A stretch of 64,000 bases of DNA, taken from the NCBI GenBank assembly GCA_964511965.1, contig CAZEGF010000006.1, forward strand, positions 18,015-82,014, read 5' to 3'. This DNA comes from an uncultured Gammaproteobacteria bacterium. GTDB taxonomy: Bacteria > Patescibacteriota > Microgenomatia > Levybacterales > GWA1-39-11. The notes beneath the pieces were generated by a model that did not search any database, was not told where the DNA came from, and saw nothing but the letters and a program-made list of their open reading frames with translations. The position numbers and the translations under genes are program-made. Shown here piece by piece: positions 16,240 through 58,787 of this stretch. Numbering within the stretch: position 1 is the first letter of the stretch; every line of letters starts with the position of its first letter.

Positions 16240-17034
16240 ATGTCACAACATACAACTCTGGCAACAACAAAAAAAGTAGCAGTCACCATAACTCTTCCTA
16301 GTGTTAACTTTGAAGCACTTCTTAAAAAAATAAAAGAATTTTCCGTCCAGCTTTTCTCAAGTATTTATAACCCAATGAGCAGTGGTATTGGTAAAGCTTC
16401 CGAAGAAGCAACATCACGCGCACAAAGATTAAAGTTTCCAAAAATGGAAAAAAATAAATTCAAATTTGATAAAAAATATCTTAAAGTTATTATTCCAGTT
16501 ATTCTAGTTCTTATTGTTATGTCAGCAATAGTAAGCTTAGTTAGATCACTACCTGATGCACAAAGCAAACCAACCTCAACAAATCAAGTATCGGCCCCAG
16601 ACGTACTATCAACTATTAATTTAGACAAAAAATTCACTTTTCCATTAAAAGATGATAAAGGTGCAGTTGTAGGAAATTTTGAATATATGATCCAATCTGC
16701 AACTCTTCAAAAACAAATAATTGTCCAGGGACAACGAGCAACAGCAGTTGCCGGCAGACAGTTTCTTATTGTTAATCTAAAAATTACAAATAGTCTAAAA
16801 AAGACTATCCAACTTAATACAAGAGATTATATTCGTATAATTACAGCAACCGATCCTAACGAACAACTCGCTGCAGACATTCATAATGACCCAGTCGAAG
16901 TACAAGCAATCTCAACCAAATTTACCAGAGTTGGAATAGCAATTAACGAATCGGACACTAAGAAAACAATTCACATGAAAGTTGGAGAGATTGATGGAAC
17001 CAAGCAAAACATTGATCTTAACTTTAAATTCTAA
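16240..17034 (+). CDS. hypothetical membrane-anchored extracytoplasmic protein (possible DUF4352-like beta-sandwich)
   Basis: Internal TM (YLKVIIPVILVLIVMSAIVSLV) followed by a beta-rich domain. The start codon is uncertain; alternatives are 16375 and 16444. Confidence 0.4.
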   Translation: MSQHTTLATTKKVAVTITLPSVNFEALLKKIKEFSVQLFSSIYNPMSSGIGKASEEATSRAQRLKFPKMEKNKFKFDKKYLKVIIPVILVLIVMSAIVSLVRSLPDAQSKPTSTNQVSAPDVLSTINLDKKFTFPLKDDKGAVVGNFEYMIQSATLQKQIIVQGQRATAVAGRQFLIVNLKITNSLKKTIQLNTRDYIRIITATDPNEQLAADIHNDPVEVQAISTKFTRVGIAINESDTKKTIHMKVGEIDGTKQNIDLNFKF

Positions 17035-17078: not shown

Positions 17079-17318
17079 ATGACCAATTCAAACAATACTA
17101 TCCCTAACCATCTACTTGCCGAGATAAAATCGGCTCTTGAAAGCGTTAAATACGGAAGCATTGAAATATTTGTCCAAAACAAAGTAATAACTCAAATAGT
17201 AGTTCGTAATATTCATAAAACAAGTATGGATATTGAAAGGCAAGAGTCTCACAGTAGTGTTACCAGTCACATTGCAACCCACTCTCATATACAAAAAAGT
17301 TCTGTTAAGATTAGATAG
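17079..17318 (+). CDS. small DUF2292 (YezD-like) protein
   Basis: LLAEIKSALESVKYGSIEIFVQNKVITQIVVRN matches the YezD-family core. Confidence 0.5.
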   Translation: MTNSNNTIPNHLLAEIKSALESVKYGSIEIFVQNKVITQIVVRNIHKTSMDIERQESHSSVTSHIATHSHIQKSSVKIR

Positions 17319-17397
17319 CTATATTTGGCTAAATAGGTCTTGACACTACTATTTATATAGTATATAAGTTAGGGTAATCGATAGAGCTGACCGCAAA

Positions 17398-17450: not shown

Positions 17451-17536
17451 TTTCTTGGGGCTACCGGAAATAAAACTAGGCGGGAGAAACGAAGTGCTCT
17501 TGAAAAAGAAATCTTAAACCAAAGGAGGTGAAATAT

Positions 17537-18808
17537 ATGACAAATTTCAAAAAACAAATTTTCTCAGTAGTCGCAGCTGGATCTCTACTCGTAAGCGTAG
17601 CAACTCCAGTTCTTGCGGATACTACAATACAAATTTCTGGAAACGGAGCTGGTTCAGACAACTATACAAAAGTTGAACAAACCAACACAAACACCGTTAG
17701 CCAGAATAACACAGCAAATGTCACCAACAATGTTACCTCAAATGCAGACACAGGAAACAACAAAGCTGGTTTTAACACAGGAGGCGATGTCAACATCGGC
17801 ACTGGAAAAGCTACAACCGTTGCAAACGTAACCAACACTTTGAACAGCAATGCTGCTCAAATTGCAGGATGCAATTGTGAAGGAGACACTAATGTTAAGA
17901 TTTCCGGAAACGGAGCTAAATCTGACAATACCGTTACTTTGAAAGATACGAATGTAAATTCAATCGGACAAAATAACGTTGCTAACGTTACCAACAATGT
18001 TGATAACAATGCAAATTCTGGTGGCAACACTGCAAATAGCAACACAGGTGGAGATGTAATGATCAACACCCAAGGAGCTACAGCTGTTTCAAACGTTACG
18101 ACCGTTGCAAATGCAAATTCTGCAATGATCGGAGGCGGAGCTGGAGCTGGACACAATTCTGCTTCTTTTGTAATTTCTGGTAATGGTGCAGGAAGCGACA
18201 ACTGGATTGACGCTAAACTCAACAATACCAATTCTGTTTCACAAGGAAATACAGCAAATGTTACAAACAATGTTGATTCTGATGCTAAAACAGGATACAA
18301 CGATGCAGGATTTAATACCGGAGGCGATGTAATGATCGGCACCGGAGCTGCTTGGTCAGAAGCAAACGTAGACAATATGGTTAACTTTAATTCAGCTAAC
18401 CTCGACTGCGGATGTGTAACTGATGTACTTGCTAAAATCGACGGAAATGGCGCTACACCTGAAGGCCACGGATACTGGGACTTCTGGAACAAGAATGATA
18501 ATACTATCCTTCTTGATTTAGTTAACGCTAATAACGTTGGACAAGGTAACAATTCTTACCTCAATAACAAAGTCAATGCTGACGCAAAGACCGGAGGTAA
18601 CGATGCTGACCTTAATACCGGTGACACTTATGGATCTGATCCATCAATCGGAACCGGACCAGCAACTAACGTAACCGATGTAAATAACAGCGGAAACGTT
18701 AACACTGTTGGAGGAACACCATTTGTAATCCCAATGCCTGGTGATTCAAGTGTTTCTATTTCTTTCAACTTTCAAGCTTTAATGGCATTCTTCGGAATGC
18801 ACGTTTAG
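17537..18808 (+). CDS. secreted Asn/Thr/Gly-rich repeat protein (4 x ~90-aa repeats, each ending in CxC)
   Basis: Signal peptide MTNFKKQIFSVVAAGSLLVSVATPVLA. Repeat units begin ISGNGAGSDN and contain NTGGDV.IGTG and NCxC/DCGC. Strong SD AGGAGGTG 8 nt upstream of the ATG at 17537. Confidence 0.7.
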   Translation: MTNFKKQIFSVVAAGSLLVSVATPVLADTTIQISGNGAGSDNYTKVEQTNTNTVSQNNTANVTNNVTSNADTGNNKAGFNTGGDVNIGTGKATTVANVTNTLNSNAAQIAGCNCEGDTNVKISGNGAKSDNTVTLKDTNVNSIGQNNVANVTNNVDNNANSGGNTANSNTGGDVMINTQGATAVSNVTTVANANSAMIGGGAGAGHNSASFVISGNGAGSDNWIDAKLNNTNSVSQGNTANVTNNVDSDAKTGYNDAGFNTGGDVMIGTGAAWSEANVDNMVNFNSANLDCGCVTDVLAKIDGNGATPEGHGYWDFWNKNDNTILLDLVNANNVGQGNNSYLNNKVNADAKTGGNDADLNTGDTYGSDPSIGTGPATNVTDVNNSGNVNTVGGTPFVIPMPGDSSVSISFNFQALMAFFGMHV

Positions 18809-18923
18809 TTTGATACAGAAACAAGTAGGGTGCTTTTGTTAGCACTTCGACAAGACCACCCTACAAGTTTCGAAACGACAAATAAACTTAAAACGAAAAA
18901 CTTAAAACTTAAAAACAAGAAAA

Positions 18924-21182
18924 ATGAATATTAAAAGAATACAACAATTACTGTCACTTACATTAATACTTGTTATATTTGTAGGAAAACTTGCAGTACC
19001 AATGGCTGTTCTTGCAGAAGATGCACCAACACCTCCTGCCGCACCATCTGCTCCTAGCGCACCGTCAGCACCATCTGCACCTACACCACCGGAACACAAC
19101 GACACTCCACCACCACCGCCTGCACCAAAACCACCCGTTAAAAATGACACTCCACCATCTGCACCAACACCACCACCAGCACCATCCGGTTCCACTGACG
19201 GACCAAGTGGTAACACACCAACTCAAAATCAAGAAGTAAATCCAACTACGACATCCGGAACCGGCGGAACAAATGGGAGTGGAAATGTAGGAGATACTAC
19301 TATTGGAACCGGGGAATCAAATGCTAACGGAAGCATTACAACAACGGGAAACAATAACACCGCTGTTAATGGAGGATGCAACACGTGTGCGGGTGGGAAC
19401 GGAACATCGGTTGGAAATTCGGGTAACGGGGTAGGTTCAAACAACAGCGCAACATCAAATGATAATAATTCAGCAACGACCGGCCAACACAACAGTGCAA
19501 ATGTTGCAAACAATCTTACACTTGGTAGTAATTCGGGCAACAATAACGCTTCATTTAATGTAGGTGATTCCTCAATAACAACTCAAGATGCTAACACAAC
19601 AGGAACCGTTATAACTTCTCTTAATACAAATGTAGATGGGGTTGCGGTTGCAACATTTGATGTAGCAGATAATCACACCGGAGACATTATACTTGCTCCT
19701 GGAAATGCAACAAGCAGCTGTACAAATGGATGTGGAGCAACTAACAATACTTCAAACACGGCAAACGGGGCTAATTCAACAAATAATGCATCAAACAATT
19801 CAACGAATAACAGTATTACAGACCAATCAAATAATGCTGTAATTGGAAGTACTCTTGATCTTACTGCAAACTCAGGTGATAACCAATCAAGCTTTAACAC
19901 CGGAGGAGATTCTTCAATAACAACAGGAGACGCAAATGTATCAGCAAATGTACTCACAATGGCTAACAATAATATCGCCGGAAATGTCCTTTACAACGTT
20001 GTTAATATATATGGTAACTTGGTCGGAGATATTATCCTTCCTCAATCAACAATTGACTCGCTTCTTTGCAACACTTGCGGAGGTTCATCGACTTCAAATA
20101 ATAAAAATGGTGACAATTCAACAAATACGGCTTCAAATAACACTACAAACAATTCAACTACAAATCAAAGCAATAATGCACAAATTGACAACAACATAAA
20201 TATAAATGGAACAACGGGAAATAATGACTCAAGCTACAACACGGGAGGAAATTCTGATATTCAAACAGGAGCTTCAAATGTTGTTGCAAATGTACTTAAC
20301 GTCGCAAATACTAATATTGATGGAGGAACATGGTGGTTGGTTATTGTTAACCAAGCTGGAAAATGGATTGGAAAGATTGTCGGATCACCTGACGGAGCTA
20401 ACATGGCTGGAAGTGCCGGAACAGAATTTGAAGTAGATCCAATAACAGGTGAAGTAACAGCAGTTGGTGCAAACACTTCAAATAGTGGAAATGGCGACAA
20501 TACAACAAATACAGCTTCAAACAACACTACAAATAACTCAACAACAACTCAAAGTAATGACGCTAAAATACAAAACAACTTAAATCTAACGGCAAACACA
20601 GGTGGTAATGCAACAAACTTTAATACTGGTGGAAATTCAAATATCAAAACAGGAGATGTTAATGTCATTGCAAATCTAGTCAACTTCGTCAACAACAACA
20701 TAACCGGAGGCGGTAAATTAGTTGTCACGGTTGTTAATGTATTTGGTAGCTGGATTGGAGACTTCGTAGCACCCGGACAACAAAAACAGGCACATAATAC
20801 TACTTCAGGAAGTTCAAACGGTGGAGGGTCAAATAACAACAATAATAATGGAAACTCAAATTCTGGAGGATCATCTATAGTATCCGGAGCTAAAGGAAAT
20901 GCTTTGATAACTGCAAATGTTGATAATTCCGGTAACACAAACACTTATGGCGCAGGAAGCGTTGAAGGTGCAAATACAACCGGCGGATCTACCCACAATG
21001 AGGCTACTGTTGCAAAAAGCGTAGGGCAAGACGGTTCTGCGACAGTAGCTAAAAAAACAATCGCAATAAATCTCGCATGGTTACTCCTTGCGCTTCCATT
21101 GTTTGGGATCGCAATGATTGCTAAAAAATCTTTTGTTCCTGTCCGAACACTCGCGATACGGGGAATACATCTCTTCTTGTGA
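18924..21182 (+). CDS. large secreted Asn/Thr/Gly-rich repeat protein with a Pro-rich stalk and C-terminal TM anchor
   Basis: Signal peptide, an (APS)n/PPPP linker, then about 130-aa repeats (..CNTCGG...NTGGNS.I.TGDANV.ANV..VGDIILP). C-terminal hydrophobic helix followed by KK. Confidence 0.7.
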   Translation: MNIKRIQQLLSLTLILVIFVGKLAVPMAVLAEDAPTPPAAPSAPSAPSAPSAPTPPEHNDTPPPPPAPKPPVKNDTPPSAPTPPPAPSGSTDGPSGNTPTQNQEVNPTTTSGTGGTNGSGNVGDTTIGTGESNANGSITTTGNNNTAVNGGCNTCAGGNGTSVGNSGNGVGSNNSATSNDNNSATTGQHNSANVANNLTLGSNSGNNNASFNVGDSSITTQDANTTGTVITSLNTNVDGVAVATFDVADNHTGDIILAPGNATSSCTNGCGATNNTSNTANGANSTNNASNNSTNNSITDQSNNAVIGSTLDLTANSGDNQSSFNTGGDSSITTGDANVSANVLTMANNNIAGNVLYNVVNIYGNLVGDIILPQSTIDSLLCNTCGGSSTSNNKNGDNSTNTASNNTTNNSTTNQSNNAQIDNNININGTTGNNDSSYNTGGNSDIQTGASNVVANVLNVANTNIDGGTWWLVIVNQAGKWIGKIVGSPDGANMAGSAGTEFEVDPITGEVTAVGANTSNSGNGDNTTNTASNNTTNNSTTTQSNDAKIQNNLNLTANTGGNATNFNTGGNSNIKTGDVNVIANLVNFVNNNITGGGKLVVTVVNVFGSWIGDFVAPGQQKQAHNTTSGSSNGGGSNNNNNNGNSNSGGSSIVSGAKGNALITANVDNSGNTNTYGAGSVEGANTTGGSTHNEATVAKSVGQDGSATVAKKTIAINLAWLLLALPLFGIAMIAKKSFVPVRTLAIRGIHLFL

Positions 21183-22288
21183 TACGAAAGGCGGTTATTT
21201 TCATAATCTGCCTCATTGCAAACCTCACATTAACCAATCATGTAAAAGCCGATGAGATTGTCGTTAATGTCAACGGAAACGGATCCGGATCAACTAATCA
21301 AGTACAAGTCACTTCTCAAAATACTACCCAAGTTAGTCAAAATAATGATGCAAGTGTAACAAATAATACGACTTCAAATGCAAATACCGGCAACAATAAC
21401 GCCTCAAATAATACCAATGGGAGTGCGACAATTTCAACAGGAGATGCCACTTCATCAACTGCCGTTAACAATCAAAATATTAATTCAAATGCTGCAGATA
21501 CTAATTGTGGATGCCAAAGTAGCTCTTCAGTTACAGTTTCAGGTAACGGAGCAGGTTCTAATAATTATGTAAATGGCTCAAATTCAAATTCTGCCTCCGT
21601 TAACCAAACAAATAATGCATCAATTCAAAATAACGCAACTACAAACGCCAATACCGGCTACAATGAAGCTTCTTACAATGGTAACGGTTCTACATTTATT
21701 ATGACTGGAAGCATTTACTCAACGACAAAAATAAACAACAAAAATATTAATAACAGCGCATACTTTGGTGCAACAGGTCTTGAGAGTAGCTTTTTATCTA
21801 TTTCCGGAAATGGGGACGGATCAGACAACTTAGTAGCATTTACCAACAACGTTAGCGTAGTTGTAACTAATACAAATGTAGCAACAATTAATAATAATGT
21901 AGAAAATAATTTAAATACTGGAGGAAATAAAACTCTTGGAAATTTGGGTGATGTAGCTATAGTAACCGGGGGGATCATAAATGATGTAACGGTTAATAAC
22001 GAAAATATAAATAGCAGTTTTGTAGAAGTTGTATGTGGTTGTAAAACTCCGGAATCACCGGAGCACCCAAATCCTCCATCCACTTCAACACCGGGAAGTT
22101 CAATTGTTCAGGGGTCAAGCGGTAGCTCAAGTTCAGGATCATCAAATGGAACCCCAGGAAATGTTCTTCCAGTTACCGGAAGTTCTATTCCATGGTCACT
22201 TTTTGCAACACTTGTGTTATTCTTCATGTTCCTTTCAGGGCTGTATCTGCGTTTCCATGGGGCTAATGCACCTCCATCAAGAGTTTAG
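21179..22288 (+). CDS. LPXTG-anchored Asn/Thr-rich repeat surface protein
   Basis: Signal peptide and three family repeats ending in NCGC/VCGC. The C-terminus is LPVTG, then a hydrophobic helix, then a basic tail (LYLRFHG): a sortase sorting signal. Confidence 0.75.
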   Translation: MIRKAVIFIICLIANLTLTNHVKADEIVVNVNGNGSGSTNQVQVTSQNTTQVSQNNDASVTNNTTSNANTGNNNASNNTNGSATISTGDATSSTAVNNQNINSNAADTNCGCQSSSSVTVSGNGAGSNNYVNGSNSNSASVNQTNNASIQNNATTNANTGYNEASYNGNGSTFIMTGSIYSTTKINNKNINNSAYFGATGLESSFLSISGNGDGSDNLVAFTNNVSVVVTNTNVATINNNVENNLNTGGNKTLGNLGDVAIVTGGIINDVTVNNENINSSFVEVVCGCKTPESPEHPNPPSTSTPGSSIVQGSSGSSSSGSSNGTPGNVLPVTGSSIPWSLFATLVLFFMFLSGLYLRFHGANAPPSRV

Positions 22289-22303
22289 AGTAGCCTTAAC
22301 CCT

Positions 22304-22325
22304 AAAACCCCGGAAGGGGTTTTTT
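22304..22325 (+). terminator. rho-independent terminator AAAACCCC-ggaa-GGGGTTTTTT
   Basis: Perfect 8-bp stem, GGAA tetraloop, T6 tail. Lies 16 nt after the stop of the LPXTG gene. Confidence 0.75.
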
Positions 22326-22344
22326 GATGGTAAACTTCTCTCTC

Positions 22345-22387
22345 TGTCATTGTGAGGAGTCCTGCGAAGTAGGACGACGAAGCAATC
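22345..22387 (+). repeat. GIY-YIG-associated repeat copy with a 16-bp internal insertion; inverted partner of 22695-22721
   Basis: TGTCATTGtGAGgagtcctgcgaagtaggacgaCGAAGCAATC. Abuts the GIY-YIG stop codon. Confidence 0.65.
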
Positions 22388-22722
22388 TAAAGTAATTCAT
22401 CATACAAATCTTTCCAATCTTTATTTTTTGTTTCAATCAAATCAATTTTTTTCTTTCTTGACCCTCCCATTATCTGTTTTTCCCGACTAATAGCTTCGTA
22501 TGGGGTCTGGAAAATTTCAAAATATACCAGCTTATGCACATTGTATTTAGAAGTAAAACTTTCAACAGCGCTATTTTTATGTTGCCAAACACGTCTTATC
22601 AAATCTTCAGTTACTCCCGTATATAAAACTTTATTGTTAAAGTTTGTAAGAATGTAAACATAATACTGTTTGTTTCTCACCAATATAGTATAAAGATTGC
22701 TTCGCTTCGCTCGCAATGACAT
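22387..22722 (-). CDS. GIY-YIG nuclease family protein
   Basis: YYVYILTNFNNKVLYTGVTEDLIRRVWQHKN is the GIY-YIG core, about 110 aa. The N-terminus (MSLRAKRSNL) is encoded by the repeat. An alternative start lies at 22743. Confidence 0.8.
   Translation of the reverse strand: MSLRAKRSNLYTILVRNKQYYVYILTNFNNKVLYTGVTEDLIRRVWQHKNSAVESFTSKYNVHKLVYFEIFQTPYEAISREKQIMGGSRKKKIDLIETKNKDWKDLYDELL
22695..22721 (-). repeat. GIY-YIG-associated repeat (reverse orientation; its reverse complement is TGTCATTGCGAGCGAAGCGAAGCAATC)
   Basis: Forms the 5' end of the GIY-YIG ORF and the upstream region of the sortase gene. Inverted relative to 22345-22387. Confidence 0.7.
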
Positions 22723-22744
22723 ATTGCGTGCTACAATACACAAA

Positions 22745-23302
22745 ATGAAACGAAATCTTCAAAAATGGGTTGGAAACATTTTGATCGCAATTTCCTTGCT
22801 GGGGCTTCTTTTCATTTATTACCCGGTTCTTAAGGAGTTTTTCTTTCCGCCTCATTTTACCGAAGCACAGAAAAAAAGCATTGGGTTTTCTATTGAAATC
22901 CCATCAATTAAAGTGTTCTCCCCGGTTATTGCCAATGTTGATCCATTCAACCAGCAAGAATATATTGAAAAGCTTAAAAATGGGGTAGCCCAGGCCAAAG
23001 GAACCAGTCTTCCCGGTCAAAAAGGTACTATATATATGTTCGCTCACTCATCAGATGTGCCATGGAGGATAACACGTTATAACACAGCATTTTTTAAATT
23101 AGATTTTGTTAAAAAGGGGGATAGGATCGTTTTGAGATATGAGGGTAAAGAGTATCGATATATGATTTATGATAAGAAGACTGTCTGGCCATCAGACACA
23201 AAATATTTGAAAGAAAATCAGGGGAATATATTGATTTTGCAAACGTGCACTCCGGTTGGAACTGCACTACAAAGACTATTAGTTTTTGCAAAGCCTAGTT
23301 AA
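22745..23302 (+). CDS. sortase family transpeptidase
   Basis: N-terminal TM, a His in MFAHSSD, and the catalytic LILQTCTPVG (TLxTC) motif. Adjacent to the LPVTG protein. The ORF-track start at 22697 reads through the repeat, so the ATG at 22745 is preferred. Confidence 0.8.
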   Translation: MKRNLQKWVGNILIAISLLGLLFIYYPVLKEFFFPPHFTEAQKKSIGFSIEIPSIKVFSPVIANVDPFNQQEYIEKLKNGVAQAKGTSLPGQKGTIYMFAHSSDVPWRITRYNTAFFKLDFVKKGDRIVLRYEGKEYRYMIYDKKTVWPSDTKYLKENQGNILILQTCTPVGTALQRLLVFAKPS

Positions 23303-23365
23303 TGATTAATGGTTGATGCTTGATGGTTAATTAACTATTAGTCATTTATCATTAGCGATAAATGT
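23300..23365. repeat. AT-rich imperfect palindromic TGATG-rich element directly after a stop codon (family member 1)
   Basis: TAATGATTAATGGTTGATGCTTGATGGTTAAT ... TTAACTATTAGTCATTTATCATTA. The arms are approximate reverse complements. Confidence 0.5.
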
Positions 23366-23439
23366 AGTGTATGGGGGAAGAACGGAAAACAAACTTTTCG
23401 GTTTGCTCAATTCTCCCCCCGGGTACACCTTGTCGGCGG

Positions 23440-23739
23440 TTAAGCTGTCACATTCTGTTCTTGCCGTATCAGGTCCTTGAGGGCTTCGGAGAACTCCGGT
23501 AAGTCTTGAATTGGCATTTCCCGAACGTATTCGATGGCGTTGTTAATGTCATCGATGGCCGCGTTAATGCAAGACAAAACCCATTTCCGCCTCTCTTCAG
23601 CCGAAGTTCCAGTTGGCAGAGGAGTGCCGTGGGGGGTGGCGAGGACGCGTTGGCTGTGAAGGACGTTGCTTGCCCCTTTGATTCGCGCCGCCGCGTGATC
23701 GAGTCTTTCCCACGCGTTGATGGTTTTGATCGAAGTCAC
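23440..23739 (-). CDS. hypothetical small protein (MTSIK family, GC-rich island)
   Basis: GTG start with a GAGGAGG SD 6 nt upstream. Paralogous to the 23791..24192 gene (shared MTSIKxxNA N-terminus and a W.L..NA.DD...A.E C-half). High-GC codon usage. Confidence 0.5.
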   Translation of the reverse strand: MTSIKTINAWERLDHAAARIKGASNVLHSQRVLATPHGTPLPTGTSAEERRKWVLSCINAAIDDINNAIEYVREMPIQDLPEFSEALKDLIRQEQNVTA

Positions 23740-23790
23740 TTTTTGCCTCCTCAGGCTTGCCCCTTCTACGGGGCGGAATTGGGACGAAAC

Positions 23791-24192
23791 CTAGTTCCCG
23801 TCAGATGGCGGGTTCGTGATTTCGTAGGTCTGCAGCTTGCTAGCTGGTTTCACTTGCGCAAGGCGAAAGGCTTCCGCGACTGTGCTGACACCGACGATTT
23901 GGAGTGGTCTGCGATTCCGTTGGCTGATCATGCTTTTCACCTCTTCAGAGAGAGGCGGGACTTCGCCGTCCGGGATGGACTTTATGTGTTCCATAGCGAC
24001 CCGAAGGTCGTCCATGGCGTTCATCAGGCCCAACATGAGCCATGTCCGGCTTCCGTCGGGCGTGTCGCTACCTGGGAGATCCCCAAGCTGCGATGCGATC
24101 AGGTTGGATTCCAGGGCATCGTAGATTTCACTGGCCCTGGCATTGCCTTGCCTGATCCTGTCCATTGCGTTGGTTGCTTTGATAGATGTCAC
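23791..24192 (-). CDS. hypothetical small protein (MTSIK family paralog, GC-rich island)
   Basis: GTG start with a GAGGAGG SD. Paralog of the 23440..23739 gene. Confidence 0.5.
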   Translation of the reverse strand: MTSIKATNAMDRIRQGNARASEIYDALESNLIASQLGDLPGSDTPDGSRTWLMLGLMNAMDDLRVAMEHIKSIPDGEVPPLSEEVKSMISQRNRRPLQIVGVSTVAEAFRLAQVKPASKLQTYEITNPPSDGN

Positions 24193-24447
24193 TTGTTGCC
24201 TCCTCAGGCTTGCCCCACTTAAATGGGAATGGTCGTAATTGTCACCGGTTACAGCCGGGTGAGAAATATGGTCGTAAGGATCAAGCCCAGGATCAGAAAC
24301 GCTAAACGCGCACCACCTCCTAGTTCCTTGATCATAGAGTTGAGAATTAGGAACACTCCCAACAAGCCAATGAACCAGGTATAAATGGTTGCCTCCTCAG
24401 GCCGATTTGGCCGCGTTGTACGCGGTATAGATCGTGAATTCAGATGT

Positions 24448-24789
24448 TTAGGGCTGTTGAGAAGACTCTCCCTCAGAAGGTACTTTTCCGAGTGATTGGG
24501 CTATGATGTAGATTTGCAACTTGCTCCTGCCTTCAGCATTACGCTTCAGGACTTCCGGCATGAGGACAATGTCCTCTTCGTTGGGGTCAATCAACTCAAT
24601 TTCGGCAAGCCGCCCGTGCAATTGCGCGTACAGCTTGGCTTTGAAGTTGTAAAGCCCCATCAGATCCGCTTTTGACATTGAGAGTACTGCTTCAGCAGTC
24701 TTGACGCCGTTTCGCATCAGGTTGTTGTAGACGCGATTTGTGAAACCGATCACACTTAAAGGAGTTTCCCCCTCAAGATGGATTGCCAT
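24448..24789 (-). CDS. hypothetical helix-hairpin-helix DNA-binding protein (RNAP alpha-CTD-like)
   Basis: LSVIGFTNRVYNNLMRNGVKTAEAVLSMSKADLMGLYNFKAKLYAQL resembles an HhH/alpha-CTD fold. ATG start with a GAGGAGG SD. High GC. Confidence 0.4.
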   Translation of the reverse strand: MAIHLEGETPLSVIGFTNRVYNNLMRNGVKTAEAVLSMSKADLMGLYNFKAKLYAQLHGRLAEIELIDPNEEDIVLMPEVLKRNAEGRSKLQIYIIAQSLGKVPSEGESSQQP

Positions 24790-24820
24790 GAACTTGTCCT
24801 CCTCAGGCGTTTTTGATTAA

Positions 24821-24867
24821 GTTTTCGCTCGCACAACCTCGTCAGACGGGGCTCTGCGAGCGAAAAC
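24821..24867. promoter_or_regulatory. 13-bp perfect inverted repeat with a 21-bp spacer (GTTTTCGCTCGCA-N21-TGCGAGCGAAAAC); candidate operator or recombination site
   Basis: Lies upstream of the first island gene on the minus strand. No U-tract on either strand, so it is unlikely to be a terminator. Confidence 0.4.
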
Positions 24868-24999
24868 TTGTTACAAGAATGTGATTTCAAGGTGCTCATT
24901 TTTTCCCAAACCCGCGAGTTTTGAGCTTATCAAAACATTAAGGAGAAGAATAAAAAATGTGGGAATATTATAAGACTGTACAGAGTTGAAGTCAAAAAC

Positions 25000-25025
25000 A
25001 AACCCCCTTGTGTCCAAGGGGGTTT
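25000..25025 (-). terminator. rho-independent terminator (AAACCCCCTTG-tgtc-CAAGGGGGTTT); the T-tract is on the minus strand
   Basis: Perfect 11-bp stem. Minus-strand tail TTTGTTTTTG. About 30 nt downstream of the stop of the 25051 gene. Confidence 0.7.
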
Positions 25026-25050
25026 GAATTGGAATCCGCCAGTTGGCGAA

Positions 25051-25650
25051 CTAGTTAGTGTTTGTAGATCCACCAACTTCTACTCCAACTGAGTTTGATG
25101 CTGGATTAGTGGTAACTGTGTTACCTCCTCCAACATTAAAACTTTGGCTGTTTCCACCTGTATTGGCACTAGACCATACATTTGTATTTACCGCAGTTGT
25201 ATTTGTTTGACTAACAACCGTAGAATTGCTGTTAATCACTACAGCTTTTGACGAGCTAAATGCTCCTCCACCTGTGACGGTTACTGTATTTGAGTTACTA
25301 TCACAACCACAATTTGATGTGTTTGTGTTAGTTCCTCCTGTGACTGATACACCAACGATGTTGGTAGCAGCGCCTGTGGTGATGCTGTTTGAACCACCAT
25401 TTCCTACATTAAAGCTTTGTTTGTTTTTACCGGTATTAGCGGACAAACCAGCCCATGTATTTACAGCGGTTGTATTATCTTGAACAGTAGTTGATGATGA
25501 AATGTTTTTAACTATAGCTTTTGTGTAGCTAAAAGAACCATTTCCGGTAACAGTAACAGTATTTGTTGCTGCAAATGATGCTGGGGCTACTACGCTCACC
25601 ATCATTGTACCGATTGCAACTGCTGATGCGATTTTTTGTTTGATATTCAT
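25051..25650 (-). CDS. secreted Asn/Thr-rich repeat protein (2 repeats, each ending in NCGCDSNSN)
   Basis: Signal peptide MNIKQKIASAVAIGTMMVSVVAPASFA. Same family as 17537-22288. Its 5' UTR AAGGAGGTGAAATATATG is identical to that of the 17537 gene. Confidence 0.65.
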   Translation of the reverse strand: MNIKQKIASAVAIGTMMVSVVAPASFAATNTVTVTGNGSFSYTKAIVKNISSSTTVQDNTTAVNTWAGLSANTGKNKQSFNVGNGGSNSITTGAATNIVGVSVTGGTNTNTSNCGCDSNSNTVTVTGGGAFSSSKAVVINSNSTVVSQTNTTAVNTNVWSSANTGGNSQSFNVGGGNTVTTNPASNSVGVEVGGSTNTN

Positions 25651-25926
25651 ATATTTCACCTCCTTTTTATTGGGATACTCCTGCCGAACCGAATGATGAA
25701 AAAAACCACAAAAAAATCCCTCGATAAACTCAGGATTTTAATTTTTGGCAGTTTATATTCATATCAGGCAGGTCAAAAGGAAATGAATTCAGGGTTCTAA
25801 GGGGCAACGTAGAACGTTAATGTTAGTTATTATATGCTAGTGTCCAGCAGGTCTGTCAAGACTAACAATCTATATATTTATATTATCAAAGATATCATCT
25901 TATATTTATTTTTTGAGGTCGCTTCC

Positions 25927-26010: not shown

Positions 26011-27021
26011 ATGCCGGCAATACAAAGAAGCGAGTTCTCACTCGCACTCAACCAAATAGCACAAGAACGAGGTGTTGATCCTGAAATAATTTTAGAGAGT
26101 ATCAAGACCGCAATTTTGGCAGCTTACAAAAAGGACCATGTCCAAGAGACAGTTGATGAAGATGAAGCAGTTGAGGCTGATAAGTATTCTGCAGAGATCA
26201 ATTCAAATACCGGTGAAACTAAAATAATGTACGAAGGGAAAGACGTAACTCCACCGGGATTTGGTCGAATTGCAACCCAAACAGCAAAGCAAGTTCTTCT
26301 ACAAAAAATCCGAGAACGTGAGAAAGATGCCATTATGGCTGAGTACACAAAAAGAATTGGAACAGTAGTAACAGGAAACATTTTAAGATTTGCAGGTAGT
26401 GCGATTATAGTTGATATCGGTAAGGCTGAAGCTTTGATTCCTCCAAATCACAGAATTCAAAACGAAAATTATTATCTCAATAAGAAAATGGCTGTTTATA
26501 TAGTCGAAATCGCTGAGGATGAAAAGCGCGGTCGCGAAATTATCGTTTCAAGAACTCATAACGGACTTTTAGAAGGACTTTTACGCCGGGAAGTTCCTGA
26601 AGTAGCATCAGGAAGTGTAACCATCAAAGAAATTGTCCGAGAACCAGGATCAAGAGCAAAAATTGCAGTTCATTCAGACCAATCTGGTATTGATCCTGTT
26701 GGATCTTGTGTCGGCCAAAAGGGAGTAAGAATACAGGCTGTTATTGATGCAATTGACGGACTTGAAAAAATTGATGTTATCCAATGGAATAGTGATACAT
26801 CAAGATTTATAGCAAATGCTCTTTCTCCGGCAAAAAATCTAACAATTGAACTGAATGAAAAAGAAAAATTAGCAACGGTAAAAGCACCAAAAGAAGAATT
26901 ACCTCTTATTATTGGTAAAGAAGGACAAAATGTAAGACTCGCTTCAAAATTAACAGGTTATAACATCGAAGTTGAAGGAATTGAAGCACCTTTAGAGCCA
27001 GAGCCTGAGGAAAAAGCCTAA
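26011..27021 (+). CDS. nusA: transcription termination/antitermination factor NusA
   Basis: N-terminal NusA domain, an S1 domain and two KH domains (GSCVGQKGVRIQAV). Lies upstream of infB. Confidence 0.9.
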   Translation: MPAIQRSEFSLALNQIAQERGVDPEIILESIKTAILAAYKKDHVQETVDEDEAVEADKYSAEINSNTGETKIMYEGKDVTPPGFGRIATQTAKQVLLQKIREREKDAIMAEYTKRIGTVVTGNILRFAGSAIIVDIGKAEALIPPNHRIQNENYYLNKKMAVYIVEIAEDEKRGREIIVSRTHNGLLEGLLRREVPEVASGSVTIKEIVREPGSRAKIAVHSDQSGIDPVGSCVGQKGVRIQAVIDAIDGLEKIDVIQWNSDTSRFIANALSPAKNLTIELNEKEKLATVKAPKEELPLIIGKEGQNVRLASKLTGYNIEVEGIEAPLEPEPEEKA

Positions 27022-55307: not shown

Positions 55308-56039
55308 ATGCATAGATACTCATACGGAACAAATAACCTCTTCTCTCGCAAGAATACAAAAAAAATTCTTGGAATTTTTAGTATTAGTCTTGGTGTTATT
55401 ACACTTCTATATTTTTTCTTTCCTCTTCTTTCTTACCAACTGTATTTGTCATCAGCATTTGCTCAAAGTGACATAACAGCCCCTTTGCCTCAACGTTTTG
55501 TTCTCGGTACTGGAGGGTCGATTGGTGGACTTTTTACATCAGGAATTTCTAATGTAACTTCTGACTATAAAGATGCGAGAAATTGGTTTCCTCAAATTAA
55601 AAAACAAAGTACGAGCAGTCAAAAAGTTACAGAATATGAATTTTCGATTCCTTCACAGAGGATTTCGCACATGAAAGTGTCAACCGTAGACTTTGATCTT
55701 TCAAAACATTTAGTTCAGTACTTCTCAACTTCTAAAAGCCCCATTGATCATGGAACATCTGTTATTTTTGGCCATTCAACTCTACCTCAATGGTTTGATC
55801 CCACAAACTACATGACCATTTTTGCCCATATGCATCTGATTAAAAATGATGATGATGTGGTTCTGACTTTAAATGGTAAAGACTATCATTACAAAGTATT
55901 TTCTATTTCTGTAGTAGATTCAAAAGATCCAAATATTTTCGCTCAAAGTTATGATAATAGTTACATTACAATTATTACTTGTACACCACCCGGCACTACT
56001 TGGAAAAGGTTGGTAGTTAGAGCAGCGCTACAGAATTAG
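55308..56039 (+). CDS. sortase family transpeptidase
   Basis: TM anchor, His in VIFGHSTLP, and catalytic ITIITCTPPG. Confidence 0.75.
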   Translation: MHRYSYGTNNLFSRKNTKKILGIFSISLGVITLLYFFFPLLSYQLYLSSAFAQSDITAPLPQRFVLGTGGSIGGLFTSGISNVTSDYKDARNWFPQIKKQSTSSQKVTEYEFSIPSQRISHMKVSTVDFDLSKHLVQYFSTSKSPIDHGTSVIFGHSTLPQWFDPTNYMTIFAHMHLIKNDDDVVLTLNGKDYHYKVFSISVVDSKDPNIFAQSYDNSYITIITCTPPGTTWKRLVVRAALQN

Positions 56040-57677: not shown

Positions 57678-58787
57678 GTGCCAGCCAAGGAGATCCCGGT
57701 GTCCGTTCGTCTTACCCACTTCGCCCTGGACGAGTTCGAATGCGCAACTGTGTTGCGTGGCGTACTCGATCCTGACACTCTGGAGGACATCCTAGTGGAT
57801 GTTTACCAGAGGGAAGTCCTCCACCAGGAGGGAAAGAAGCACAGCCTCATCGAGGCTTTGCGCAACGGCGCCCGCGTTCCCGATGTTGAAATCGGCATGC
57901 GCGGAGACAACTTCTCCATCGAGGGAGAAGGAGAGGGCTTCATCGTCCTCAACGACCCGGCCTACATCGTCGACGGCCTGCAGCGCATCAGCTCCGGTAT
58001 CGCTGTGATGAGAGAGGGCATTCGCCCTCACATCGGAGCGACTATCCACTTCAACACAGATAAGGTGTGGGAGAAGGATCGGTTCAAGACGCTGAATCAG
58101 GACCGCGTTCGTGTCAGCACGAACATCTTGCTCCGCAACTTGGGAGAGGAGAACGCCGCAATAGCGGTTTTGCTCCAACTCACCAGGTCGGATAAGGCGT
58201 TCGCCATGAACGGTCGTGTTTGCTGGAATCAGCAGATGGCTCGCAGCGAGCTCATCACCGCCCTCACCTTTGCGAAGGTGATTGGGAGGCTTCACATGCA
58301 CGTGGGTCCGACCGGCAACAGCCAGGTCGACCTGCTCGCTGATGGTCTCCAGACGGTAATGAATGCCGTTGGCAAGCAGGTTTTCAAGGACAACATCAAG
58401 ACGTTCTTCGACGTCATCGACAGGATGTACGGTGTCAAGCGCGTAACCTTTACGCGTGGGGCGGTGTACATGAGGGGGTCCTTCCTCCTTGCCTTGGCGA
58501 AGTTGTTCTCGAACCACTTGGAGTTCTGGAAGGACGAGAAGCGCTTCTTCGTTGAGGCGCCACTCGTACGGAAGTTGTCCACCTTCCCCATCGGAGATCC
58601 TCATGTCATCTCCCTTGCCTCCTCCGGAGGCAAGGCGATCGACCTGTTGTACCTCCTGATGGTGGAACACGTGAACAGCGGCAAGCGCACGAAGCGTCTG
58701 ACAGCACGTAACTACGTGCCGTTGTCCTCGGAAGTGGACGATGATGCTGATGACGGCGACAACAATCCAGAAGAGCCGGCTGCCTAG
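57678..58787 (+). CDS. DUF262 / ParB-like nuclease-fold protein with a DGxQR motif (GmrSD N-domain / DndB-like relative); GC-rich, likely acquired
   Basis: DVYQREV...HSLIEALRNGARVPDVEI...AYIVDGLQRISSG matches the DUF262 pattern (QR..W...LidSi..g.piP.i...iDGQQR). Clearly higher GC than the flanks. GTG start. Confidence 0.55.
   Translation: MPAKEIPVSVRLTHFALDEFECATVLRGVLDPDTLEDILVDVYQREVLHQEGKKHSLIEALRNGARVPDVEIGMRGDNFSIEGEGEGFIVLNDPAYIVDGLQRISSGIAVMREGIRPHIGATIHFNTDKVWEKDRFKTLNQDRVRVSTNILLRNLGEENAAIAVLLQLTRSDKAFAMNGRVCWNQQMARSELITALTFAKVIGRLHMHVGPTGNSQVDLLADGLQTVMNAVGKQVFKDNIKTFFDVIDRMYGVKRVTFTRGAVYMRGSFLLALAKLFSNHLEFWKDEKRFFVEAPLVRKLSTFPIGDPHVISLASSGGKAIDLLYLLMVEHVNSGKRTKRLTARNYVPLSSEVDDDADDGDNNPEEPAA

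Follow-up and report, generated by a model that had tools for sequence, protein, structure and literature searches.

We describe a conserved gene module in a Candidatus Levybacteria (CPR) genome, which combines four secreted paralogs (genes A to D) with a sortase and the most likely product of which would be an abundant surface coat or fibre of stacked beta-sheets. We favour, with a probability of roughly 45%, a chaplin-like arrangement: stacked subunits of A and D would be tethered by the anchored proteins C and B. The four proteins (A, 423 aa; B, 752 aa; C, 369 aa; D, 199 aa) carry 4, 4.5, 3 and 2 copies, respectively, of one Asn/Thr/Gly-rich repeat of about 89 residues.

The gene module and its host

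The four open reading frames are present where an earlier note on this DNA had placed them (Table 1). No rRNA or tRNA genes were found within the window, that is, the whole 64-kb stretch of DNA that was analysed. The closest named matches of its NusA (85, 74, 72 and 70% identity) are Candidatus Levybacteria/Levyibacteriota, which bears out the supposed CPR host (Microgenomates, Patescibacteria/CPR), and a named Levyibacteriota entry also occurs among the D-type homologs.

Table 1. Coordinates of the module genes and associated signals in the window
Feature	Position	Strand	Evidence
264-aa membrane protein, extracellular DUF4352-like domain	16240..17034	+	conserved first module gene
79-aa DUF2292 small protein	17079..17318	+	PF10055, E 3e-8
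Perfect Shine-Dalgarno region of A, AAGGAGGTGAAATAT	17522..17536	+	18-mer before A and D only
Gene A, secreted, 423 aa, signal peptide, 4 units, no anchor	17537..18808	+	BLASTP, profile
Stable RNA hairpin, A-B intergenic	18818..18871	+	MFE -30.4 kcal/mol, z -4.0 versus shuffles
Gene B, 752 aa, secreted repeat protein with C-terminal TM	18924..21182	+	profile; orthologs
Gene C, 369 aa, 3 units, LPVTG sorting signal	21179..22288	+	profile; orthologs
Sortase, 185 aa, N-terminal TM	22745..23302	+	PF04203, E 2e-23
Intrinsic terminator of D	24999..25026	-	12-bp stem, 7 GC pairs, T-run
Gene D, 199 aa, signal peptide and exactly 2 units	25051..25650	-	BLASTP, profile
Perfect Shine-Dalgarno region of D, identical to that of A	25651..25665	-	18-mer and SD scan

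Nine related loci share the gene order membrane protein-(small ORF)-A-B-C-sortase. In a tenth related genome, L017, the module is inverted yet kept together, and in L016 it is missing as a block from the corresponding site; the module thus behaves as one unit. In all related loci, the inverted one included, A is directly preceded by an ortholog of the first module gene, which encodes the membrane protein and weakly matches DUF4352 in Pfam (E 0.011). The DUF2292 small protein is syntenic in L001 to L015 and shows no detectable conservation in L017; it is a conserved neighbour in most relatives, and it is uncertain whether it belongs to the system. A GIY-YIG gene, which sits on the opposite strand between C and the sortase, is absent from the relatives. 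The orthologs have kept their length and unit number and diverge at about the rate of IF-2. At least 677 full-length homologs of A measure about 415-425 aa, orthologs of B (729-775 aa) occur in all loci, and orthologs of D with about 200 aa are widespread.

The repeat unit and its predicted fold

That the four ORFs share a repeat, as had been read from the sequence before, is agreed upon by BLASTP between the paralogs (composition-corrected E values of 2e-21 for A-C, 7e-17 for A-D and 8e-13 for A-B), by an alignment of thirteen units with one consensus, xxxSGNGAxSxN...VxQxNxAxVxNN...ANTGxNxASFNTGGDxxIxTGxA...VxNxxNxN, and by a profile search of the six-frame translation of the window, which matched A to D only. 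By this profile, A has four units, B four plus an N-terminal half, C three and D two. Searches in Pfam, NCBIfam, PHROGs and PDB sequences gave no match to the repeat, in accordance with the earlier failure to recognise the family, and in metagenomes it defines at least 3,048 protein clusters. The Cys pair that was thought to end every unit is present as CxC in units 1 and 3 of A, units 1 and 3 of C and unit 1 of D but not in the other units, and the units of B carry CxxC, CxxxC and CxxC rather than CxC.

AlphaFold2 (AF2), run on A with a 61-sequence MSA, predicts an all-beta protein (pLDDT 75.4, pTM 0.67) with the identical strand set of 6+33+3+4+18 residues in each of the four units, and the model of D has the same strand pattern at lower confidence (pLDDT 62.6, pTM 0.38). 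A unit-level DCA of 1,307 unique units (Neff 1,072), which is independent of AF2 and unable to show stacking between units or subunits, yields an antiparallel diagonal of unit positions 25-43 against 65-82, whose register is continued by strand S0. As many as 20 of the 23 couplings fall on alternate, conserved V/Q/N/A positions, and this alternation argues for face-to-face layers instead of an in-plane hairpin. AF2 and DCA indicate that the unit consists of two beta layers, which pack against each other via alternate small or polar residues. We infer that such units stack in parallel and that the repeat stack is a giant-rung beta-solenoid. To our knowledge, a rung of 89 residues lies well outside the known solenoids, and we know of none whose rungs exceed a third or so of this width.

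Foldseek searches against the PDB placed FapC and curli on top for both models, followed by other parallel beta-helices, all of them non-significant (E 7e-3 to 1, TM at most 0.11; for FapC, E 7e-3 and 0.74 for the two models and TM 0.05-0.11). By sequence, FapC gave no match to the repeat proteins, the curlin repeat no Pfam match at E <= 0.1, and hhalign against E. coli CsgA a probability of 1%. The beta-solenoid that had been guessed from composition agrees with the AF2 strand pattern, the DCA and these non-significant structural neighbours.

For repeat proteins, AF2 is known to predict beta-solenoids with confidence more often than is warranted (PMC11795689). Together with the composition of A to D (42-57% N+T+G+S) and the low confidence of the D model, this bias might suggest that the solenoid is an artefact of repetitiveness and that the proteins are low-complexity, largely disordered and hydrophilic components of the envelope. 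We regard this as very unlikely, given the strong position-specific conservation (at least 70 invariant columns in 61 orthologs of A), a covariation signal that is clear, alternating, antiparallel and obtained independently of AF2, and units that are imperfect (35-60% identity) and not near-perfect repeats.

Surface anchoring and the sortase

All four proteins have, as claimed previously, a signal peptide; judged by eye, each comprises K/R, a hydrophobic core and VLA, VLA, VKA or SFA ahead of the first unit, and in A the -1 Ala is invariant in 61 orthologs. The sorting signal of C is likewise present and consists of LPVTG at residues 330-334, about 23 hydrophobic residues (segment 334-359) and the tail RFHGANAPPSRV. 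C, whose first 4 nt also form the end of gene B, combines a signal peptide, a P/S/G linker that is predicted to span the wall, LPxTG, a hydrophobic stretch and a charged tail, and thereby matches the LPXTG substrates of Gram-positive housekeeping sortases; it differs from them in that its tail is long, conserved (YLRF..ANAPP..) and poor in basic residues. The motif is found in the C ortholog of all ten related loci, as LP[VAMRI]TG, and C is the sole LPXTG candidate in the window.

For B, the earlier note had proposed a Pro-rich stalk and a C-terminal TM. The membrane anchor is there (TM ~711-735, followed by the conserved tail KKSFVPV..LAIRGI..FL), but the Pro-rich part (~32-93) directly follows the signal peptide and precedes a half unit and four extended units of 113-130 aa, while the linker beside the TM is G/N/S-rich. 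The sequences speak for a secreted cell-surface system with one putative sortase substrate (C) and one predicted membrane-anchored member (B).

The sortase starts with an ATG 456 nt after the stop of C, close to the LPVTG gene as previously noticed, and follows C in every locus. It scores above the family cut-offs (PF04203, 82.9 bits versus 26.6; TIGR01076, 57.4 versus 39.35), and its catalytic His (FAHS), Cys (LQTCTP) and Arg (QRLLV) are conserved in the L005 and L017 orthologs and align to the class C sortase 8t28. A membrane-anchored sortase with a His/Cys/Arg triad beside its substrate gene is also typical of the Gram-positive paradigm, from which this enzyme departs by scoring below every NCBIfam class cut-off, those of classes D, E and F included.

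Polymerisation by the sortase had been suggested as well, and the locus does share with SpaA-type pili a gene cluster with a dedicated sortase, whose sequence is closest, among solved structures, to those of class C pilus sortases (E 7e-9) and whose best NCBIfam class match, NF033745, is also class C. This match reaches, however, only 64.4 bits against a cut-off of 160, a regex scan found neither a YPKN pilin motif nor an E-box in A to D, and one sortase stands beside one substrate gene, with LPXTG in just one of the four paralogs and in a single ORF of the 64 kb. Because a pilin motif is lacking, a pilus with subunits joined covalently by LPXTG-to-lysine isopeptide bonds is highly improbable, and the earlier suggestion is not supported.

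Translation signals and the proposed assembly

Two of the genes had been noted to share an identical 5' stretch, and indeed the window contains exactly two copies of the 18-mer AAGGAGGTGAAATATATG, one before A and one before D, compared to 0.01 copies expected by chance. The full 10-nt Shine-Dalgarno sequence AAGGAGGTGA is restricted to these two among the 48 window genes, 37 of which have no SD match whatsoever, and the strong SD on A and D is conserved in relatives. This exclusive distribution suggests that both encode abundant structural subunits, with SD strength as a proxy for abundance only; A is presumed to be the major subunit and D an abundant minimal one.

In the chaplin-like assembly that we propose, Sec would export all four paralogs, and each unit of about 89 residues would fold into a single, very wide rung, whose two long strands would lie face to face and pack via alternate residues that are small or polar (V, A, N, Q). 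Consecutive units would stack in parallel to form a short, flat beta-solenoid slab of four rungs in A and B, three in C and two in D. The adjacent sortase would cut C between Thr and Gly of LPVTG and link it covalently to the cell wall, while the C-terminal helix of B would keep this protein in the membrane. A and D, which may be the bulk subunits because they have no anchor and carry the strongest ribosome-binding sites of the region, would attach, by beta-edge stacking, to the edges left exposed in B and C and to one another. The product would be a ribbon, fibre or coat of cross-beta structure that is tied to the envelope, in which the conserved Cys pairs probably serve to staple loops or to cross-link subunits. 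We infer polymerisation, the division into major and anchoring paralogs and this role of the cysteines from the features described above. Host attachment had been suggested as a possible role; the IF-2-like divergence and kept length of the orthologs, and signals on the unanchored paralogs that typify highly expressed genes, agree more with a structural coat than with an adhesin that is host-specific and evolves fast.

Each paralog could also be a stable, monomeric beta-solenoid that is displayed individually as an adhesin or binder of wall or ligand, with C and B on the envelope and A and D released or non-covalently wall-bound. The conserved aromatic C-terminal tail of A, which includes a short helix, could act as a cap that leaves the stack monomeric, which would speak against a polymer; the same non-significant Foldseek list contains many adhesins of the beta-helix type and ice- or carbohydrate-binding proteins that are monomeric, and the outward faces of the predicted rungs are Thr/Asn arrays. 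We nevertheless consider monomers rather unlikely. D comprises two uncapped rungs only, has no additional N- or C-terminal segment and models poorly alone, the strongest translation signals belong to the two unanchored paralogs, and four co-conserved paralogs with one stackable unit fit co-assembly better. The bare rungs of D, and a first unit that begins right after the signal peptide in A and C, are counted in favour of assembly by stacking.

A two-dimensional lattice is a further, unlikely alternative to fibres, in which A and/or D would tile the cell as a paracrystalline layer of the S-layer type, held by the anchors B and C. The inferred high expression and the strongly conserved size would suit such a layer, and S-layers have been reported in Patescibacteria (bioRxiv 10.1101/2024.05.28.596244). 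DCA also couples the GNG loop (9-13) to the NTGG apex (46-58), at odds with a straight slab. These couplings connect rung ends and could represent lateral subunit contacts; they could also be artefacts of subfamilies, since both loops carry insertions in unit 4 of A. Furthermore, Pfam and NCBIfam searches found no SLH or other known S-layer domain.

The favoured reading, a tethered stack, has its closest organisational counterpart in the Streptomyces chaplins (ChpA-H) with sortase E, likewise a set of secreted paralogs sharing one domain, which in chaplins self-assembles. Their longer members are sortase-signalled and wall-anchored, the short unanchored ones co-assemble on these into a surface amyloid layer, and conserved Cys pairs are important (PMC5618241). 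The resemblance is one of organisation only: A to D have no Pfam match to the chaplin domain PF03777, chaplin domains are hydrophobic and about 55 aa long whereas the units described here are Asn/Thr-rich, hydrophilic and about 89 aa long, and the present system has an extra membrane-anchored paralog (B) and resides in an ultra-small CPR bacterium. Curli (CsgA/CsgB) and Pseudomonas Fap (FapC/FapB) likewise consist of imperfect N/Q/G/A/S/T-rich repeats. Each repeat makes one strand-turn-strand rung, and the rungs form a two-layer beta-solenoid that has Asn/Gln ladders, as is predicted here; curli and Fap also pair a major subunit with a surface-tethered nucleator paralog. Their rungs, however, comprise about 20-40 aa instead of about 89, and they use the outer-membrane secretion channels CsgG/FapF, in contrast to the sortase and TM helix of a monoderm-type envelope.

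It is possible, though on balance doubtful, that the unit represents a new class of structure, namely a two-layer beta-solenoid with giant rungs, and the module a hitherto undescribed, functional-amyloid-like CPR surface polymer, nucleated on C and B and built from the abundant subunits A and D. If this were true, the module could account for the fibres or layer observed at the envelope of ultra-small groundwater cells, on which S-layers were reportedly observed by cryo-TEM (Luef et al. 2015).

D has its own strong terminator. The A-B hairpin lacks a T-tract and is therefore no canonical terminator; it possibly acts as an attenuator or mRNA stabiliser.

Four secreted paralogs and their repeat family

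The four repeat-protein genes proposed in the earlier note (A, B, C and D) were all found where it had placed them. Asparagine makes up 15-19% of the four proteins, and threonine, glycine and serine are also abundant. Pairwise BLASTP with composition correction links them as paralogs (A-C 2e-21, A-D 7e-17, A-B 8e-13), and 13 aligned units share a consensus that includes invariant Gly, Asn and Thr columns; the resulting profile finds four units in A, a half unit and four in B, three in C and two in D. Profile matches in a six-frame translation of the whole window are confined to A-D; the 423-, 369- and 753-aa ORFs at 53-59 kb, whose sizes resembled a second cluster, proved unrelated and contain no repeat matches. 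The unit measures 113-130 aa in B, where every unit carries an extra hairpin-like extension, and ~89 aa in the other three proteins. By eye, each N-terminus reads as a signal peptide, with a hydrophobic core behind a basic n-region and an AxA-type site directly ahead of unit 1, and the alanine at -1 is invariant across 61 A orthologs. A Cys pair had been thought to close every unit: the pairs are indeed conserved, but they are restricted to units 1 and 3 of A and C and unit 1 of D, those in B being of the CxxC/CxxxC type.

Coordinates of features in the window
Feature	Position (nt)	Strand	Length (aa)
Promoter-like TTGACA/TATATA pair	17335-17365		
Terminator-like hairpin and T-run	17430-17450		
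Gene A	17537-18808	+	423
Gene B	18924-21182	+	752
Gene C	21179-22288	+	369
GIY-YIG nuclease ORF	22387-22743	-	
Sortase	ATG at 22745		
Insert	~23303-24900		
Insert ORF, MTSIK start	23440-23739		
Insert ORF, MTSIK start	23791-24192		
Insert ORF, RNA polymerase alpha-CTD-like	24448-24789		113
Gene D	25051-25650	-	199
NusA	26011-27021		
Protein with central TM segment	53037-55298	+	753
Second sortase	55308-56039	+	243
ORF with acidic C-terminus	57678-58787	+	369

An exhaustive HMMER search of 1.84 billion representative proteins with the 13-unit profile gave 3,048 matches at E <= 1e-3, 2,021 at <= 1e-10 and 729 at <= 1e-30, and, clustered at 50% identity, the family numbers no fewer than 3,048 groups. 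Its members fall into discrete size classes of ~410-440 aa (four units), ~500 aa (five units) and ~690-850 aa (the B type), with a maximum of 1,183 aa and 9-10 units. Scans of A-D and eight diverse family members against Pfam, NCBIfam and PHROGs gave no meaningful match, the unit profile matched no PDB sequence even at E <= 10, a PDB sequence search with A returned nothing except chance chlorophyll-binding matches at E 0.3, and literature searches pairing sortase or LPXTG with Levybacteria or Microgenomates yielded no paper. Because annotation, PDB and literature searches were all empty, the repeat appears, by these measures, to be an undescribed large domain family; the earlier failure to recognize it was thus borne out in Pfam, NCBIfam, PHROGs and PDB sequences. 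A alone has at least 677 homologs, of which the best 120 are full length (~410-450 aa), 49-100% identical and in every case devoid of a Pfam domain or name.

Conservation and expression of the module

The named relatives of NusA (85, 74, 72 and 70% identity) all belong to Candidatus Levybacteria/Levyibacteriota, a lineage of the Microgenomates group of Patescibacteria, and one D-type homolog also bears the Levyibacteriota label; Rfam and tRNA scans of the window gave no match, and it contains no rRNA or tRNA gene. Species-representative MAGs with the module (loci L007-L013) are titled 'uncultured Gammaproteobacteria bacterium', a name that clashes with the NusA result and seems to be either a placeholder or a taxonomic error. 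Short housekeeping proteins (IF-2 485 aa, AlaRS 610 aa) and very sparse Shine-Dalgarno (SD) use both fit a reduced CPR genome.

Nine distinct related loci share one gene order: an MFP-ABC-FtsX operon (minus strand), a 254-266-aa TM protein, DUF2292, A, B, C, sortase, D (minus strand), nusA and infB, with LPxTG in C at every one of them. At locus L017 (NusA 71% identical) the block of TM protein, small ORF, A, B, C (LPVTG) and sortase is intact and inverted, and at L016 (NusA 72%) the entire block is absent between the efflux operon and nusA. Since these genes remain together when inverted and are absent as a block, they move as one module. All four paralogs change faster than NusA and about as fast as IF-2 (at L014, A is 53%, IF-2 58% and NusA 75% identical), and their length and unit number are preserved across related loci.

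The identical 5' leader that had been noticed on two genes is the 18-mer AAGGAGGTGAAATATATG, which occurs exactly twice in the window, before A and before D. In 37 of the 48 window genes, the 21 nt before the start contain no SD-like match of at least 4 nt; the complete AAGGAGGTGA is found only at A and D, the next best match being 7 nt. Five relatives keep this strong SD at A and D; none precedes B, C or the sortase. D is monocistronic with a terminator (12-bp stem), a stable hairpin (z -4) lies 3' of A, and B and C overlap by 4 nt (stop of B, start of C), an arrangement suggestive of translational coupling. We infer bulk production of the unanchored A and D and a low output of the anchored B and C. 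The ~170-nt leader of A also contains a promoter-like pair followed by a terminator-like hairpin and T-run; this element, which has no Rfam match, may be a leader/attenuator or may terminate the DUF2292 gene that lies upstream.

Unit architecture and proposed surface assembly

AF2 modelled A (61-ortholog alignment) as an all-beta protein with pLDDT 75.4 and pTM 0.67, in which all four units have the same strand set of 6, 33, 3, 4 and 18 residues; D (100-sequence alignment) shows this pattern at low confidence (pLDDT 62.6). Foldseek found no PDB match to either model at E <= 1e-3, and its ranked, non-significant neighbours, namely the FapC amyloid, curli CsgA, tapirin, SufBD, TPS domains, pectate lyases and ice-binding proteins, all have parallel beta-helix or solenoid folds. 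Alignment of the unit profile with the CsgA sequence by hhalign gave a probability of 1%.

AF2 over-predicts solenoids for repeats (PMC11795689), and an independent covariation test was therefore run by mean-field DCA on the 89 profile columns, using 1,307 unique units from retrieved family members (Neff 1,072). Unit positions 25-43 and 65-82 couple most strongly, along an antiparallel diagonal (i+j ~107-110) on which 20 of 23 couplings involve odd positions of the first strand, occupied by the conserved V27, Q29, N31, A33, V35, N37, V39, A41 and A43, with A80, N78, N76, A75, N73, V69, V67 and A65 as partners. Such alternate-residue coupling is predicted by face-to-face sheets (a beta-arch), not by an in-plane hairpin. 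Because of this pattern, the rung is modelled as a ~33-residue top strand above a ~31-residue bottom strand; small and polar side chains would zip the two together, and the turns would be the GNGAGS and NTGG segments. Positions 4 and 6, in strand S0, couple to 17 and 19, in continuation of the same register if S0 is taken as the tail of the bottom strand before it. Repeated arches would stack rung on rung into a parallel beta-solenoid slab. That A-D are disordered low-complexity proteins and the AF2 solenoid an artefact is improbable, as both the conservation of positions and the covariation pattern speak against it. The strong couplings of the GNG loop (9-13) to the NTGG apex (46-58), for example residues 36-40 and 73-85 of A, join segments expected at opposite ends of a straight rung; they and the coupling of N9 to Q29 misfit a straight slab. 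Lateral contacts between subunits, a bend and subfamily artefacts are possible sources. In unit 4 of A, insertions are present in this loop as well as at the apex (TPEGHGYWDFWN and GDTY).

The first rung of A and of C begins at the signal-peptide cleavage site, and D consists of two bare rungs with no sequence on either side. At the C-terminal end of C, a P/S/G linker leads into LPVTG, ~23 hydrophobic residues and RFHGANAPPSRV, and B has an N-terminal Pro-rich segment and a predicted C-terminal TM helix followed by a conserved cytoplasmic tail. The sortase matches PF04203 (E 2e-23) and scores above the TIGR01076 cut-off and under all class-specific NCBIfam cut-offs; its closest solved relatives are class C sortases (E 7e-9). 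A pilus polymerized by this enzyme is nevertheless highly improbable and was dropped, because A-D contain neither a YPKN pilin motif nor an E-box and only one gene encodes LPXTG.

Bare rungs, a single sortase substrate, a membrane-anchored B and probably abundant A and D together make a tethered cross-beta ribbon, fibre or coat the best-supported model, to which we assign a probability of about 0.45. End-to-end stacking is normally driven by exposed beta edges, as in curli; here, those of D, A and C would drive it, the probably abundant unanchored A and D would make up the polymer, and C and B would tether it. Chaplins are organized equivalently: long, sortase-anchored members hold co-assembled short ones, and Cys pairs are important (PMC5618241). 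Display of the solenoids as monomers is unlikely, and a two-dimensional S-layer-type lattice slightly more so. For host adhesion, which the earlier note had proposed, the results speak neither for nor against. Secreted self-associating paralogs with a sortase anchor are an already known principle, and we therefore rate the module as a variant on a known theme; there is nonetheless a considerable chance, though below even, that this surface polymer is functional-amyloid-like, of a new class, and has an unprecedented rung size.

CPR/Patescibacteria account for a large share of bacterial diversity and are mostly uncultured, and their envelope proteins are, to our knowledge, almost wholly unassigned. 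Our results define a Pfam-absent domain family and, in Levybacteria, a conserved surface module of five to seven genes that is probably highly expressed. Should A and D polymerize on the sortase- and membrane-anchored paralogs, they would constitute a new bacterial functional amyloid lineage with unusual rung geometry and offer a molecular handle on the CPR surface for antibodies, cryo-ET assignment and metaproteomic markers. D, with 172 mature residues and two units, lends itself readily to expression and structure determination.

Neighbouring inserts and a second sortase

The GIY-YIG ORF (PF01541, E 1.5e-15) between C and the sortase overlaps the region upstream of the latter and has weak PHROG homing-endonuclease matches. 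It is missing at L005, L014 and L015, where the C-sortase gap is 69-170 nt, and is likely a mobile homing-endonuclease-type insertion. The insert between the sortase and D is richer in GC (0.43-0.44), missing at L005 and L014, and without PHROG matches. Two of its ORFs are paralogous, a third matches PF03118 (E 1e-5), and its small minus-strand ORFs share the leader GCCTGAGGAGGCAA (~23731, 24184, 24377 and 24798). A diversity-generating retroelement or repeat at 23.3-24.9 kb was rejected, the similarity being just SD-containing leaders common to four minus-strand genes.

The second sortase (GHS...ITCTP...KRLVV motifs) is 28% identical to the first and lies directly downstream of the protein with a central TM segment; the window holds no LPXTG substrate for it. 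The ORF with an acidic C-terminus (GC 0.456) is unlike its surroundings in composition and may be foreign DNA.
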